Shown here one piece after another: positions 4,137 to 19,362 of a stretch of DNA of 20,202 nt. Location: positions 1 to 20,202 of the forward strand of contig JALWJR010000028.1 of the NCBI GenBank assembly GCA_026996985.1, given 5' to 3'. Each line of letters starts with the position of its first letter. Position 1 is the first letter of the stretch. The notes beneath the pieces are model-generated. The model saw nothing but the letters and a program-made list of their open reading frames with translations. It was not told the DNA's origin and searched no databases. Both the position numbers and the translations under genes were made by a program. This DNA is from Candidatus Kaiserbacteria bacterium (lineage in GTDB: Bacteria; Patescibacteriota; Minisyncoccia; Phycocordibacterales; UBA2100).

Positions 4137-4160
4137 TATATCCGCCCATAGCTCAGCTGG
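4137..4160 (+). repeat. exact copy of 5 leader nt plus the first 19 nt of tRNA-Lys (tatatccgcccatagctcagctgg)
   Basis: Identical 24-mer recurs at 4230..4253, where it starts the real tRNA-Lys. Confidence 0.85.
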
Positions 4161-4229
4161 CCCAGCACCAAATTGGTGCCGGACATGTGCCGCAACAGGC
4201 TATAGGTGCGTGTAGATTTACGAATCGTT
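4161..4229 (+). repeat. 69-nt spacer with palindrome gcaccaaattggtgc and motif cggacatg; weak similarity to the Z modules
   Basis: Shares gcacca, cggacatg and ccgca with 11014..11083. Assignment to the Z family is tentative. Confidence 0.35.
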
Positions 4230-4234
4230 TATAT

Positions 4235-4307
4235 CCGCCCATAGCTCAGCTGGTAGAGCAGCGGGCTTTTAACCCGTGTGTCCCAGGTTCGAGTCCTGGT
4301 GGGCGGA
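4235..4307 (+). tRNA. tRNA-Lys (anticodon TTT)
   Basis: Hand-folded cloverleaf. Acceptor CCGCCCA/TGGGCGG, D arm GCTC..GAGC, anticodon stem GCGGG/CCCGT, loop CTTTTAA, T arm CCAGG TTCGAGT CCTGG. No encoded CCA. Confidence 0.9.
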
Positions 4308-4584
4308 CACGGAACAAAGTGGAGTGGCCGAACACAGCAGAGCAAACCAAGCCGTTATTGTAACTAACAGCTTGGCAAGTTGCTTTGCTTCTATTTTGGT
4401 GAGAAAGTTTACCCAGCCCATTTTTCACTGCCGGCTCTATTACCACGAAAGAGAAATTGCGCTCAATTACTAAACAGGTGCAACAGAGAGTATATTTAAA
4501 AGTGGTGGGGGCTGGTAGGCAACAAACAATACAATGGTTCGCACTCATTCAATTCAGTGAAGAGTGGGACAGAGTGAATTTATG

Positions 4585-10660: not shown

Positions 10661-10732
10661 GTCCCCGTAGTTTAATGGATAAAACAGGTGGCTTCTACCC
10701 ACCCGATGGGGGTTCGAGTCCTCCCGGGGACA
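10661..10732 (+). tRNA. tRNA-Arg (anticodon TCT)
   Basis: Acceptor GTCCCCG/CGGGGAC, anticodon stem GGTGG/CCACC, loop CTTCTAC, T arm GGGGG TTCGAGT CCTCC. Confidence 0.9.
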
Positions 10733-10938
10733 CAAAACAAGAAGCGCAAAGCGAACGCTTTGCGCGACTATGTTTTGTTAAACCCGGGAGGATCTCGAAA
10801 AAAGGCGCGCGCGAAGCCCACAAAGACACGGGTGTGTCTTTGTGGAGCGTGCCGTCGGGGCAGCGGGCACTTAGCGCTTTTGCCGAGTGAAAGGAGGCAA
10901 AAAGCTTAGTGCCGGCGCCGAGTCCTCCCGGGGACACA
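10733..10938 (+). other. tRNA-3'-end-capped structured insertion, Arg copy: trailer hairpin, guide-like strand, GGATCTCGAAA core, two hairpins, exact tRNA 3'-end copy
   Basis: Trailer hairpin 10733..10777. cccgggagga (10783..10792) is complementary to tcctcccggg. Hairpins 10818..10845 and 10866..10913. The 20-mer cgagtcctcccggggacaca occurs at 10715..10734 and 10919..10938. Confidence 0.6.
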
Positions 10939-10940
10939 TA

Positions 10941-11013
10941 GAATATCAAATCCTCAAAGCAACGCTTTGGGGATTTTTGATATTCTTGGCACCGGGAGGA
11001 CCTCGAAAAGAGG
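10941..11013 (+). repeat. second trailer hairpin plus a second guide-like strand and core (accgggaggacctcgaaaagagg)
   Basis: Hairpin gaatatcaaa...tttgatattc at 10941..10985. Core at 10991..11013 repeats the layout of 10783..10808. Confidence 0.6.
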
Positions 11014-11083
11014 CGCCCCGCACCATGCACGCATGATGCGGACATGCCCGCACCATACGTACCAATTCGTATACATAATAAAA
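11014..11083 (+). repeat. Z module: palindromic hairpin ccgcaccatgcacgcatgatgcgg flanked by two gcccgcaccat-like motifs, plus a 33-nt tail
   Basis: Near-identical first part at 19317..19350. tgcccgcaccatac also occurs at 13530..13543. The tail is the exact reverse complement of 13596..13628. Confidence 0.6.
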
Positions 11084-13493: not shown

Positions 13494-13554
13494 GATGCAG
13501 ACCAACATGCATCGTGCGTGGTGTGGGCCTGCCCGCACCATACTACACTGCATC
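13494..13554 (+). repeat. Z-like palindromic element (gatgcag...ctgcatc closing stem; inner tggtgtggg/cccgcacca)
   Basis: Shares tgcccgcaccatac with 11045..11058. On the minus strand, gcccacacca copies the tRNA-Val 3' end. Confidence 0.5.
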
Positions 13555-13595: not shown

Positions 13596-13628
13596 TTTTA
13601 TTATGTATACGAATTGGTACGTATGGTG
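13596..13628 (-). repeat. 33-nt tRNA-Val trailer, exact inverted copy of 11051..11083
   Basis: The reverse complement reads caccatacgtaccaattcgtatacataataaaa, identical to 11051..11083. Confidence 0.9.
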
Positions 13629-13702
13629 TGGGCGATGTTGGGCTCGAACCAACGACCTTCCGCTTGTAAGGCGGACGCTCTAGCCAACTGAGCTAATCGC
13701 CC
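13629..13702 (-). tRNA. tRNA-Val (anticodon TAC)
   Basis: Acceptor GGGCGAT/ATCGCCC, D arm GCTC..GAGC, anticodon stem TCCGC/GCGGA, loop CTTACAA, T arm GTTGG TTCGAGC CCAAC. Confidence 0.9.
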
Positions 13703-13744
13703 GTGCATTAAATATATCAAAAGCAAAACTCCTGTCAACAAATA

Positions 13745-13880
13745 ACCCCCTCGGGAGGCTAAGCCTGAGTCCGAGGGGGAGCAAATCTCTGGTCGGGGCT
13801 GTCGCAATTTCGCGACCACCCCCGCCCCGTGCTGGGGGATCAGGGGAGGGTGCGGGAGTGCCCAATGGGGAGCCCCGTTG
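13745..13880. other. unassigned GC-rich structured intergenic block
   Basis: Hairpin ccccctcgg...ccgaggggg at 13746..13779 contains a gagtcc T-loop-like remnant. cggggct (13794..13800) pairs with agccccg (13871..13877). G-tracts lie between them. Confidence 0.35.
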
Positions 13881-16067: not shown

Positions 16068-16149
16068 GCCCAGGTGGTGGAACTGGTATACACACACGGT
16101 TGAGGGCCGTGGCACTCCGTGCGTGCGGGTTCGAGTCCCGCCCTGGGCA
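16068..16149 (+). tRNA. tRNA-Leu (anticodon GAG)
   Basis: Acceptor GCCCAGG/CCTGGGC, anticodon stem CACGG/CCGTG, loop TTGAGGG, long variable arm, T arm GCGGG TTCGAGT CCCGC. Confidence 0.9.
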
Positions 16150-16343
16150 CAAGCGAAACGAAGTGGAGTGCGGTGCACAGGGAGCAGAGCAAACTGCTTT
16201 GCTCTGCGTCGGGATCTCGAAAGGCGGAGCGATGTGCGAGCAAAGCGAGCACGATGCGAGCCCGGGCAGGAGCCACTTAACGAACGAGGAGCAAAGCGAC
16301 GAAGTGAGTTTAGTGAGCTGACGCCGAGTCCCGCCCTGGGCAC
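16150..16343 (+). other. tRNA-3'-end-capped structured insertion, Leu copy (divergent)
   Basis: Trailer hairpin 16184..16207, core gggatctcgaaagg at 16211..16224, then cgcc and an exact 19-mer cgagtcccgccctgggcac at 16325..16343 (first copy 16132..16150). Confidence 0.55.
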
Positions 16344-16671
16344 TAGGTGTCGCTATATCAAGCCCTACAAAATGTAGGGCTTGATGGGAATATGGTTTAA
16401 ATATATTAAAGAGTTGAGCAGTTCAGATACAATATCAAGATATTGTTATTATTAGTAATTCACGCACGAAACCATATTCCCATTTAGCGACATCTAGTGC
16501 CAGGGCACCAATGCCCCTGCAACAGATTTTGTTGTGTAATCTAGTGTTGCAATTTGATATTAGAGTGGTCAATCTTCAAGCAAAAAAGTATAATGTTTAT
16601 ATGTAAAAACCTTAAAATTTTAAACTGAAATTTTAAGGAAACAAAATCTGTTGTCAGGGGCGCCCTGGGCA
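16341..16671 (+). other. AT-rich nested-hairpin element ending in a third partial tRNA-Leu 3'-end copy (cgccctgggca)
   Basis: Long-range pairs 16341..16355/16485..16499 (with one G-T), 16386..16397/16470..16481 and 16514..16533/16640..16660. Local hairpin 16357..16385. Partial copy at 16661..16671. Confidence 0.5.
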
Positions 16672-16686
16672 TAAAAAATTGAAGAT

Positions 16687-16947
16687 ATGTTTAGTTATGT
16701 TTATATTTTGCAATCTAAGAAAGATGGTTCCACATACACAGGAAGTACAACAGATTTGAAAAGAAGAATAAAAGAGCATAATGATGGTAAAGTAAAATCT
16801 ACGAGATCAAAACGTCCTTGGAAGTTAGTGTATTATGAAGCTTATCTTTTAGAAGATACTGCCAGAAAACGTGAAAAATCAATAAAAACACATGGTAATA
16901 TAAAGAGGCAATTATTTGATAGAATCTTTAAAAATTTATCTTCATAA
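16687..16947 (+). CDS. small stand-alone GIY-YIG nuclease-domain protein (YhbQ/UPF0213-like)
   Basis: YVYILQS...YTGSTTDLKRRIKEHN...WKLVYYE...AR.RE..IK matches the GIY-YIG core. Confidence 0.8.
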   Translation: MFSYVYILQSKKDGSTYTGSTTDLKRRIKEHNDGKVKSTRSKRPWKLVYYEAYLLEDTARKREKSIKTHGNIKRQLFDRIFKNLSS

Positions 16948-18421: not shown

Positions 18422-18444
18422 CCTACCGGTCGCATCGGATGGTC

Positions 18445-18547
18445 GCCCCCCACCACTTTTGTGCTTTAAACCTGTGGCGGTAAATAGTAAAGTGTTGACA
18501 AGCCAAATTGCAAATTAATGGTTTACGGTACAAAAGTGGTGGGGGGA
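18445..18547 (+). repeat. 103-nt extended hairpin at the P3 position (17-bp base ccccccaccacttttgt/acaaaagtggtgggggg)
   Basis: Identical to 18563..18666 except for one extra C in the second copy. Confidence 0.9.
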
Positions 18548-18562
18548 GGAAAGTCCGGACAC

Positions 18563-18666
18563 GCCCCCCCACCACTTTTGTGCTTTAAACCTGTGGCGGT
18601 AAATAGTAAAGTGTTGACAAGCCAAATTGCAAATTAATGGTTTACGGTACAAAAGTGGTGGGGGGA
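18563..18666 (+). repeat. second copy of the 103/104-nt hairpin, inserted just after the P4 5' strand
   Basis: Direct comparison with 18445..18547. Confidence 0.9.
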
Positions 18667-18958
18667 GAAAGGTAGCGGGTAACACCCGTCCGGGGCAACC
18701 CGAGAGGTGCGAACAGAGACGCTGAAAGTGGAAACACTTTCAGGGCCCTTTTGGGGTTAGCTCTTAGGGAAACCTAAGAGGTGAAACGGCTAAATCCTTA
18801 CCTGCGTGCAAGGCCGTGCCGAGCCCATACATTTAGTATAAGCTCGGAGAGCCGCAAGAGGCGACTGGTAACAGTCGTCCCAGATAAATGACCATCGCTG
18901 AGTCTTTTGGCGCAAAGATTCGGTACAGAATCCGGCTTATAGATGCGATCTGCCAGAT

Positions 18959-19032
18959 GGCGGCTGTAGCTCAGTTGGTAGAGCCCTCGGTTGTGGTCCG
19001 AGTGGTCGTGGGTTCGAGTCCCACCAGTCGCC
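18959..19032 (+). tRNA. tRNA-His (anticodon GTG) with encoded G-1
   Basis: G-1 opposite C73. Acceptor GCGGCTG/CAGTCGC, anticodon stem CTCGG/CCGAG, loop TTGTGGT, T arm GTGGG TTCGAGT CCCAC. Confidence 0.9.
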
Positions 19033-19108
19033 CAGCAATTGTTAAGCCAAAACACAAGCGTGTTTTGGTTTTTACAATTGCCGGCGAATGTGGGATCTCG
19101 AAAAGAGG
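19015..19108 (+). repeat. 94-bp direct repeat, copy 1: tRNA-His T-loop to 3' end, trailer hairpin, guide-like strand and core
   Basis: Exact 94-mer recurs at 19223..19316 (period 208). Confidence 0.95.
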
Positions 19109-19222
19109 CGCGCGCGAAGCCCGCAAAGACACAGGTGTGTCTTTGCGGAGCGCGCCGTCCGGGCAGGGGGTACTTAGTGCTTTTGCCGAGTTTAACGAGG
19201 CAAAACACTTAGTACCGGTCGC
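19109..19222 (+). other. conserved two-hairpin core of the tRNA-linked element, His copy
   Basis: Hairpins 19121..19148 and 19169..19216. By-eye alignment to 10809..10918 is close to nine-tenths identical, with compensatory changes. Confidence 0.6.
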
Positions 19223-19316
19223 CGAGTCCCACCAGTCGCCCAGCAATTGTTAAGCCAAAACACAAGCGTGTTTTGGTTTTTACAATTGCCGGCGAATGTG
19301 GGATCTCGAAAAGAGG
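19223..19316 (+). repeat. 94-bp direct repeat, copy 2
   Basis: Identical to 19015..19108. Confidence 0.95.
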
Positions 19317-19362
19317 TGCCCCACACCATGCACGCATGATGCGGGCAGGCCCGCGTAGTCGG
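19317..19362 (+). repeat. Z module, His copy (tgccccacaccatgcacgcatgatgcgggcaggcccgc...)
   Basis: Close match to 11014..11050. Confidence 0.6.

Follow-up and report, generated by a model that had tools for sequence, protein, structure and literature searches.

The tRNA-His gene of a Candidatus Kaiserbacteria bacterium (assembly GCA_026996985.1, contig JALWJR010000028.1, positions 1 to 20,202; this whole stretch of 20,202 nucleotides is called the window here) is followed by a conserved RNA segment that lies between an inverted and a direct copy of the tRNA's own 3′ part, T-loop to 3′ end. A covariance model of this segment (R1) identified 35 such units, all 35 of them directly downstream of a tRNA gene and on the tRNA strand, and together the units appear to be a structured RNA family tied to tRNA genes that we found undescribed in Rfam and the literature. 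On balance we lean towards reading them as protein-less cassettes that have repeatedly been added or exchanged at the T-loop, with the direct repeat at tRNA-His as the latest of these events. The window is a low-GC (guanine plus cytosine) piece of bacterial chromosome with housekeeping genes and seven tRNA genes.

At the His locus, a repeat search of the window detected a 97-nt direct repeat at 19015-19111 and 19223-19319 with 99% identity, the only mismatch being a c at 19109 versus a t at 19317. The original prediction, made from the sequence letters, had described two identical 94-bp copies at 19015-19108 and 19223-19316, and this was confirmed in position and content, with identity at 94/94 nt and its left limit at a t (19014) versus a c (19222). 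A perfect 94-nt repeat in 20 kb cannot be of chance origin. The repeat starts at C56 in the T-loop (cgagtc) of tRNA-His(gtg), whose gene occupies 18960-19033 on the + strand, as do the other parts of the His locus and the sister loci at Arg and Leu (ARAGORN; Rfam tRNA, 66.2 bits), begins 4 nt past the class-A RNase P RNA and has its G-1 encoded in the gene at 18959. Copy 1 consists, in order, of the tRNA 3′ part (19015-19034), a hairpin (19035-19081), an antisense or 'guide' strand GGCGAATGTGGGATCTCGAA (19083-19102) and AAGAGG, and copy 2 of a second tRNA 3′ part termed A′ (19223-19242), hairpin 2 (19243-19289), guide 2 (19291-19310) and again AAGAGG. The duplex of the guide with the tRNA-His 3′ part was computed at -23.8 kcal/mol with 15 Watson-Crick pairs. 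The copies enclose a unique 114-nt segment (19109-19222), called the core in the original prediction, and copy 2 is followed by a Z module (19317-19362) directly 3′ of CTCGAAAAGAGG, the place where a core would be expected; the predicted layout of core after the first repeat and Z after the second also held. Z is 92% identical over 37 nt to 11015-11051 of a tRNA-Arg locus in the same window. As a family member it was rejected, being unmatched by the covariance model and confined to this organism, and it is probably a different or decayed distal unit. The hairpin of the repeat has outer arms gcaattgt..acaattgc and an inner stem, read by eye as ccaaaacac-aagc-gtgttttgg, followed by a run of five T (ttttt). 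A terminator scan listed the hairpins of the Arg locus and not those of His, and our guess is that the His hairpin was missed since its upstream A run pairs with the T run. Promoter-like sites were found by a promoter scan only 5′ of the RNase P RNA/tRNA-His pair and 5′ of tRNA-Arg.

The extent of the family was determined with a search pattern derived from three window copies, a looser version of which was run on metagenomes. Five loci of the genome collection matched, all of them in metagenome-assembled genomes (MAGs) of Patescibacteria (candidate phyla radiation, CPR) from the groups Parcubacteria, Saccharibacteria and Paceibacter, plus one chance match, and the looser pattern gave 20 metagenome loci; a strict pattern is matched by the five CPR genomes and some 19 metagenome loci. 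The matches L006 and L018 were judged by eye to be due to chance and were left out. Viral contigs yielded 0 matches in the pattern scans. R1 was built on 14 copies and run on the window and the gathered contigs, and the sources of its 35 units are exclusively MAGs of Patescibacteria and unclassified metagenome contigs, several with the gene order of the window. The units stand behind 16 tRNA species, i.e., His, Arg(tct), Arg(gcg), Leu(gag), Leu(caa), Ser(cga), Ser(tga), Gln, Lys, Ala, Phe, Ile, Gly, Glu, Val(gac) and Val(tac). Rfam 15 returned no relevant family when the whole window was searched at E up to 1 and the units alone at E up to 10, and the full-text literature that was searched held no description of such an element. 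A diverged subfamily, with H1 ..GGAGCGATGTTGCGCGAGCACGCGCAACCGCGAGG.. and a different H2 arm (arms as defined below), was found at tRNA-Arg(tct), tRNA-His or tRNA-Leu in relatives (L016 1928-2140, L021 6897-7040, L020 2270-2368 and 4810-4910); some of its copies score under the R1 threshold, and the antisense strand of L021 spans only the last 7 nt of the tRNA.

The loci share one order on the tRNA strand, namely tRNA, terminator-like hairpin, antisense strand, core and second tRNA 3′ part, and their flanks follow a rule: on the left the local tRNA is present from T54 to its 3′ end as the reverse complement, and on the right it is repeated directly, beginning at C56 in all 35 units, each limit being accurate to ±1 nt. 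The rule was valid for three T-loop sequences, the direct copy starting with CGAGTC, CGATTC or CAATTC, and it bears out the T-loop, one of two unit boundaries proposed earlier. The left junction variants GGACTCGAA, GGAATCGAA and GGAATTGAA follow the local T-loop. Most loci, including His, have the T-loop TTCGAGTC with GGACTCGAA on the left and CGAGTC on the right; at the Gly locus of L024 the T-loop is TTCGATTC, with ..GAGAATCGAA on the left and CGATTCTCGC.. on the right, at the Glu locus of L001 it is TTCAATTC, with GGGGAATTGAA and CAATTCCCC, and at the Arg(tct) locus of L020 it is TTCGATTC, with GGTAGGAATCGAA and (G)ATTCCTACC... Since the junctions change with the local T-loop, CTCGAA and CGAGTC are not motifs of the element, and ctcgaa simply results from reading the TTCGAG of the tRNA as its reverse complement. 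Pairing of the antisense strand with the tRNA 3′ part is seen at nearly all loci, and where the two tRNA copies differ this strand fits the true tRNA better than the downstream copy (-39.9 vs -21.6 kcal/mol in L022, -47.6 vs -13.6 in L023 and -35.6 vs -22.0 in L007). The downstream copy retains at least 7-12 nt in every locus, and the direct repeat ranges from 7 to 94 nt across loci. Genes that bear units end in N73-C-A and an A-rich trailer, not in CCA (e.g., 19031-19035 and 10731-10735), and the direct copies have the identical N73-C-A end. Complementary DNA of mature tRNA was rejected as the source of the copies, which end like the gene.

The conserved RNA has a length of about 135 nt and, judged by covariation and folding, the architecture of a three-way junction; at His the R1 match spans 19094-19230 (45.4 bits, E=3e-9). 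Its closing helix P1 is formed by the antisense strand (19083-19099 in the predicted fold) and the downstream tRNA copy (19224-19240), with at least 7 bp in every locus. The original prediction had the repeats flank a two-hairpin core; they do flank it, but they are not mere flanks, since the guide with its CUCG and the second tRNA copy form P1. Next to P1 comes an A-rich junction (GAAA; GAAAAGA at 19100-19106), followed by the H1 arm (19107-19159), which is closed by G-N-C/G-N′-C and contains a GGA/GA internal loop. P4 (19162-19164 with 19221-19223) pairs the GGC of an invariant GGGCAG with a GCC that ends in C56 of the direct copy, and has the subfamily variants GGGG/CCCC, GGUC/GACC, CCC/GGG and UCC/GGA. 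It carries the H2 arm (19169-19216), in which CUUAG/CUUAG with a U·U mismatch is invariant. In an unfitted MAFFT alignment 96.8% of cells were paired and 12 of 24 pairs were compensatory, whereas shifting the partners by 1-3 columns as a control left no more than 39% of cells paired. The 32 distinct R1 hits gave 93.4% paired cells and 20 of 24 compensatory pairs, in an alignment that is fitted to the model and so biased towards structure. Because the variable H1 is misaligned in the raw MAFFT alignment, RNAalifold retrieved from it no more than a portion of H2. The tRNA strand out-folded its complement in 24/24 H2 arms and 20/24 H1 arms, which points to selection at the RNA level on the tRNA strand. 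For the trailer RNA freed of its tRNA, the predicted fold at five loci was a hairpin and a P1-closed junction. The predicted minimum free energy (MFE) fold of the whole His precursor (-146.8 kcal/mol) instead pairs the 5′ part of the tRNA with the downstream copy, and the long hairpin and core then form a 208-nt insertion in the T-loop; with the cloverleaf enforced the predicted energy is -140.7 kcal/mol, just 6 kcal/mol above the MFE.

Two sister loci lie in the same window. The tRNA-Arg(tct) locus (10661-11083) has its tRNA at 10661-10733, a long hairpin 1, a conserved unit at 10791-10926 (covariance model), a second tRNA 3′ part (10920-10939), a long hairpin 2 and, at the distal end, its own Z (11014-11083), so that Arg and His have a common layout of tRNA, module 1, core, module 2 and Z. 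The His core is 87-88% identical to its Arg(tct) counterpart, the Leu(gag) version being more distant. The diverged flanks at Arg, which the original prediction set against the perfect repeat at His, proved to be a contrast that holds: the Arg modules share only the 20-nt tRNA part and a segment of about 22 nt, ccgggagga(t/c)ctcgaaaa(a/g)agg. The inner hairpin of Arg hairpin 2 is unrelated to that of hairpin 1 and comes with its own compensating guide, and both Arg antisense strands, though different, still pair with the tRNA part. The tRNA-Leu(gag) locus (16068-16346) comprises the tRNA (16068-16150), a conserved unit (16213-16332; covariance model, 94 bits) and a second tRNA 3′ part (16325-16346), and its guide is interrupted by a mini-hairpin at 16184-16207.

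The family was compared with known systems, and the likenesses and differences were as follows. Tyrosine-integrase islands and prophages resemble the units in that the insert lies in the T-loop, a replacement 3′ end keeps the tRNA intact, the native 3′ part remains as a direct repeat and accretion is in tandem at the same site; a direct repeat of the tRNA 3′ segment does flank the insert here. The units differ from them in being of about 0.2 kb without integrase or cargo, in belonging to one family that serves 16 tRNAs with flanks tailored to each, in carrying an extra inverted copy of the tRNA 3′ part and in having a conserved structured RNA as the insert. Islands and prophages were rejected on two counts, as Pfam detected no integrase among 20 ORFs (open reading frames) of the window and only recurring housekeeping families among the 25 commonest listed for 62 neighbouring ORFs at 20 loci, and as there is not one tRNA target but 16. 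A miniature inverted-repeat transposable element (MITE) or other DDE derivative was rejected because the inverted flanks are copies of the local tRNA that vary with T-loop and stems and are not owned by the element, because the direct repeat has no fixed length, and because all units lie behind tRNA genes and are not dispersed. Like integron attC cassettes, the units are co-oriented, promoter-less, stacked at one attachment point and bounded by an imperfect palindrome of 60-140 nt with a variable centre and conserved ends, and one can conceive of a unit being excised through recombination of one palindrome with the next; unlike them they have no intI and no ORF, and the palindrome arms are locus-specific tRNA sequence. 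The integron cassette was discarded as no RYYYAAC/GTTRRRY sites are present, the hairpin ends TTCGAG/CTCGAA are tRNA-derived and Pfam gave no integrase in the window or among the commonest families of the neighbouring ORFs. With the primer-binding site of retroviruses and long terminal repeat (LTR) retrotransposons the units share a complement of the tRNA 3′ part that reaches into the T-loop beside the body of the element; that complement ends at T54 and not at 58/59, lacks the CCA and is often imperfect in the acceptor part, and there are neither LTRs nor a reverse transcriptase.

Among RNA-based systems, archaeal non-canonical tRNA introns, with intron transposition and split tRNAs, likewise have inserts at structural positions including the T-loop, related inserts across tRNAs and complementary flanks that join tRNA parts; here the host is a bacterium, no bulge-helix-bulge is evident and the tRNA is complete without splicing. 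Bacteria are not known to have a splicing endonuclease. RNAs cut from tRNA precursors and tRNA-like processing signals (the E. coli 3′ETS-leuZ sponge, the MALAT1 mascRNA signal and the tRNA-like domain of tmRNA) are comparable in that the RNA of the units is part of a tRNA 3′ trailer, and the closing helix of the units, predicted to form from acceptor/T-arm sequence, could be readable by tRNA-processing enzymes; unlike these RNAs, the units hold exact and antisense copies of the neighbouring tRNA 3′ part, and their acceptor-proximal pairs are often mismatched. The IS110 bridge RNA and the omega RNA of IscB/TnpB also have a locus-specific, target-complementary strand beside a conserved scaffold, and sequences that match both strands of the target duplex, but the guides of the units lie outside the hairpins H1 and H2 and not in internal loops; bridge, seek and omega RNAs were rejected since Pfam showed no DEDD recombinase, IscB or TnpB gene in the window or among the commonest families of the neighbouring ORFs and Rfam no match. 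Group I and II introns were rejected as there was no Intron_gpI or group II match at E up to 10 and a C precedes the 3′ junction. No Rfam model of the known self-cleaving ribozymes (hammerhead, twister, pistol, hatchet, HDV-like, hairpin) matched, the only hit of the ribozyme search being RAGATH-13 on the opposite strand (14 bits, E=3.8); readings of the conserved nucleotides as hammerhead, hairpin ribozyme, kink-turn or box C/D did not agree by eye with the respective consensus; and T-box, HEARO and similar families had no Rfam 15 match. What the family does show are the general marks of a structured RNA, i.e., compensatory changes, one-strand asymmetry and a predicted fold. Together, these comparisons indicated that the family lacks what defines islands and prophages, MITEs, integron cassettes, bridge or omega RNAs, introns and known ribozymes, and that it keeps one trait of tRNA-integrating elements, a replacement 3′ end with the native 3′ end left as a direct repeat.

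We then considered the history of the units. The gene block rplS - tRNA-Leu(gag) - PduO-type adenosyltransferase - tRNA-His - SIMPL, near which tRNA-Arg(tct) and tRNA-Val(tac) lie, is also present in L016, L020 and L021, whose proteins are 63-75% (L19), 48-49% (adenosyltransferase) and 39-43% (SIMPL) identical to those of the window, and all three carry units behind the same tRNAs as the window (Arg-tct, Leu-gag, His). Since units are found at orthologous tRNAs of distant genomes, the association of unit and tRNA is old. The similarity of cores, in contrast, follows the genome or sample and not the tRNA: identity is 87% between Arg and His of the window, 91% between Ala of L011 and Gln of L026 and 84% between His of L016 and Leu of L020, and only 50-66% among orthologous His cores, and an identical 36-nt H1 occurs in Arg and His of L020. 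Stacking was also observed, with two identical 210-bp units in L005 where the same locus of L015 has one, tandem units of which the last is truncated in L003, and truncated distal remnants in L001 and L023. L008 holds two units of different subfamilies, the second being nearest to the tRNA-Glu unit of L001 (72%) and not to the first unit of L008. Gene conversion alone hardly accounts for a stack of unlike subfamilies, which argues that units were added more than once.

The 94-bp repeat is the youngest event at the His locus, whether it arose by duplication and insertion or by homogenisation. Calling it recent, as the original prediction did, is reasonable given copies of 100% identity around a core that differs by 12-13% from its nearest paralogue, but gene conversion of older modules could produce perfect identity as well. 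Two histories fit: in one, a tRNA-repeat-Z locus gained a 208-bp unit (repeat plus core), with 94 nt copied locally; in the other, gene conversion homogenised two older, diverged modules, possibly starting from the 20-nt tRNA part and the guide/CTCGAAAAGAGG end of about 25 nt that they share. Exact look-ups of flanking proteins were used to find alleles of the locus. They returned one scaffold without the 208-bp unit, of the kind that had been suggested as a check: L028, from another sample and with single-nucleotide differences, reads tRNA-repeat-Z. L028 also lacks one period of a 119-bp tandem repeat in the RNase P RNA gene, and with it the universally conserved GGAAAGUCCGG; in the window a unique 18 nt with the RNase P CR-I motif sits between identical 101-nt hairpins, and these 18 nt are dropped in L028. 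As an essential RNase P motif is lost, the scaffold collapses repeats and is untrustworthy as an empty site, and it is most likely an assembly collapse rather than a true one. The assemblies L027 and L030 break at the repeat, and the closest SIMPL homologue is only 49% identical, so that there are no near relatives for comparison. A Logan contig (SRR13622958) starts exactly 30 nt before the repeat/Z junction, which would fit a graph branch between repeat-to-Z and repeat-to-core if k=31 is assumed. The copy number at His depends on short-read assembly; as a type the arrangement is real, because versions with diverged flanks occur at Arg and Leu and in independent assemblies. The RNase P RNA gene itself (18425-18955) has its two 100% identical 101-nt hairpins at 18446-18546 and 18565-18665, 119 nt apart, bracketing a conserved GGAAAGTCCGG (~18548-18558); Rfam aligns the RNA only from 18624 (86 bits, under the gathering score of 100), and the hairpin includes a promoter-like TTGACA..TAATGG.

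In the cassette reading, the His locus would consist of two stacked units of a T-loop-anchored, protein-less family of Patescibacteria. Each unit, of about 190-210 bp, would bring a replacement tRNA copy from C56 to the 3′ end, a terminator-like hairpin, an antisense strand from the tRNA 3′ end back to T54, and the conserved RNA core with the arms H1 and P4/H2, and would enter the original gene at U55|C56. The functional tRNA would then end in the cassette copy, while the displaced native 3′ part would come to lie behind the core and, with the antisense strand, close it as a three-way junction through P1. Units would be added repeatedly at the T-loop, or cores exchanged between loci, by an enzyme that is presumably host-encoded or supplied in trans; the unit would be read through from the tRNA promoter, and removal of the tRNA would free the P1-closed RNA. 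Several observations weigh against this. The same tRNAs carry units in a conserved block whose SIMPL proteins are about 40% identical, which fits long residence and a host function under concerted evolution with transposition unneeded. Pfam showed no integrase, transposase or reverse transcriptase in the 20 ORFs of the window, and no protein family that recurs in more than two of the 62 ORFs adjoining units at 20 loci, among the 25 commonest families listed, where only housekeeping families recur. The flanking-protein look-ups gave no trustworthy empty site, and the one unit of L015 as opposed to the two of L005 is possibly an assembly collapse like that of L028. The reading offers no account of where a cassette would obtain a 3′ part and antisense strand matched to another tRNA, and the core may be poorly transcribed, as a terminator-like hairpin precedes it. 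A bolder form of the cassette reading, which we regard as quite doubtful, is that the units are a novel type of insertion element, programmed by RNA, self-neutralising and devoid of protein genes. Its free form would be a three-hairpin RNA of about 200 nt or a single-stranded DNA, whose long hairpin would exchange strands with a matching tRNA or tRNA gene at its acceptor and T stems, the antisense strand taking the 3′ half of the target and the element's copy of the 3′ half taking its 5′ strands; both ends of the element would thereby be placed at U55|C56, where the core would catalyse insertion or recruit a host enzyme.

The old association of units with their tRNAs has to be weighed in favour of a non-mobile tRNA 3′-trailer RNA that benefits the host and is vertically inherited, the main rival explanation, which we take seriously while thinking it unlikely. 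Such an RNA would be transcribed with the tRNA, and once the tRNA was cut off its antisense strand and second 3′ copy would pair into a helix resembling a tRNA acceptor/T arm atop a three-way junction, which could serve as a processing signal (e.g., an entry for RNase P or RNase Z), a decoy or a regulator; similarity of cores within a genome would stem from gene conversion, and the His repeat from local tandem duplication or conversion. Units at orthologous tRNAs over deep divergence, strong covariation with invariant junction nucleotides, folding that favours the tRNA strand, a P1 of at least 7 bp kept in every locus, the predicted trailer fold and the lack of a mobility gene in the window and of a recurring one in the 62 neighbouring ORFs all agree with it, whereas stacks of unlike subfamilies and truncated distal copies resemble repeated additions, the antisense strand tracks the upstream tRNA where the copies differ, a terminator-like hairpin stands ahead of the core, and 16 tRNA species require spread at some time. 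The predicted precursor fold raises another explanation, a ribozyme-type or RNA-guided T-loop intron in which a 208-nt insertion would separate positions 55 and 56 and its core, by its own catalysis or by recruiting the activity, would bring about cleavage and ligation at N|C56, leading to splicing, circles and reverse insertion into target tRNAs chosen by the antisense strand. The precursor MFE of -146.8 kcal/mol belongs to exactly this fold (-140.7 with the cloverleaf enforced), all variants have both junctions at one T-loop position, nucleotides of the junction are conserved, and the size range of the smallest group I introns includes that of the unit. We nonetheless hold an intron to be improbable, as no ribozyme or intron family of Rfam 15 matched (E up to 10), the tRNA needs no splicing to be complete, the putative intron ends in a C and not in the terminal G required by group I introns, the downstream copy has decayed to 7-12 nt in several loci and splicing would therefore be unable to restore the tRNA, and no reverse transcriptase was found.

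Integration into tRNA genes has sublocation preferences that include the T-loop, and direct repeats of a tRNA 3′ segment starting there are a classic integration signature, just as the stacking resembles accretion at attachment (att) sites. Remnants of integrase-mediated islands or prophages in the T-loop, reduced to attL, a short remnant and attR in the manner of cis-mobilisable remnants of integrative conjugative elements, are nevertheless very improbable: related cores are found at 16 different tRNAs, the insert is only about 115-135 nt with RNA-type covariation and strand asymmetry, the inverted tRNA 3′ copy is always present and is not produced by integration, no integrase was seen in the window or among the commonest families of the 62 neighbouring ORFs, and viral contigs gave nothing in the pattern scans. 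We give equally little credence to the tandem at His being an artefact of assembly, with a true locus of tRNA-repeat-Z into which a core was threaded from another allele or molecule. L028 does read tRNA-repeat-Z in another sample, and several assemblies break at the repeat; L028, however, also drops the 18 nt of RNase P CR-I between identical hairpins and so collapses repeats, both flanks of the core are His-specific and the core must therefore adjoin this repeat, the Logan contig start fits a repeat-to-core branch in the sample (with k=31 assumed), and versions with non-identical flanks exist at Arg, Leu and more than 20 other loci.

If the family is as it appears, it is a widespread class of structured RNA in Patescibacteria that is absent from Rfam, physically linked to tRNA genes and composed in part of the adjoining tRNA's sequence, both direct and inverted. 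It makes testable the maturation and protection of single-copy tRNA genes in reduced bacteria, the targeting of a protein-less cassette to tRNA by base pairing, and the origin of insertions in structured-RNA genes of CPR bacteria. Were the RNA-programmed insertion element true, the most reduced bacteria known would possess a tRNA-programmable, T-loop-specific insertion system, and such a T-loop-anchored programmable logic would be of interest to genome engineers. Perfect repeats of 94-210 bp at tRNA genes break or collapse short-read assemblies, as several did here, so that CPR MAGs may contain errors at tRNA loci and in RNase P RNA genes.

Further observations concern the surroundings of the window's tRNA genes. 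The mini-hairpin that splits the antisense strand at tRNA-Leu is GCAGAGCAAACTGCTTTGCTCTGC (16184-16207), and its centre of 14-16 nt, AGCAAACTGCTTTGCT, recurs in the trailers of Arg-gcg and Arg-cct on unrelated contigs (L012 7978-7991, L023 1493-1508, L024 12308-12323); a similar sequence is present in the trailer of tRNA-Lys in the window (~4338-4400). Downstream of the Leu unit (16347-16947) there are a long inverted repeat (arms 16379-16398 and 16469-16488), a complement of the tRNA-Leu 3′ end, ctagtgccagggc (~16495-16507), a third fragment of that 3′ end (cgccctgggca, 16661-16671) and an 86-aa GIY-YIG ORF (16687-16947) that was found only in this strain. The tail of the Arg Z (11046-11083) is a 38-nt inverted repeat, at 97%, of the 3′ end and trailer of tRNA-Val(tac) (13596-13633). 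These arms enclose 2.5 kb of higher GC (~0.52) with a Na/Ca exchanger gene and a beta-ketoacyl synthase gene, and may be the scar of an inversion or recombination; an extra Z-like hairpin lies at 13516-13543. A GC-rich, hairpin-rich stretch at 13740-13880, upstream of tRNA-Val and before uppS (ccccctcgggagg..cctgagtccgaggggg, ggggctgtcgcaatttcgcgaccacccc ...), was assigned no ORF and matched nothing in Rfam (E up to 1); possibly it represents a further structured RNA. At tRNA-Lys(ttt) a second copy of the 5′ part lies 93 nt ahead of the gene (4137-4167 vs 4230-4260), the duplicate spanning 6 nt of leader to the D-loop (GCTGG); with a unique 69-nt insert between the copies, unmatched in the other loci, this is a 5′-side counterpart of the 3′-side duplications.

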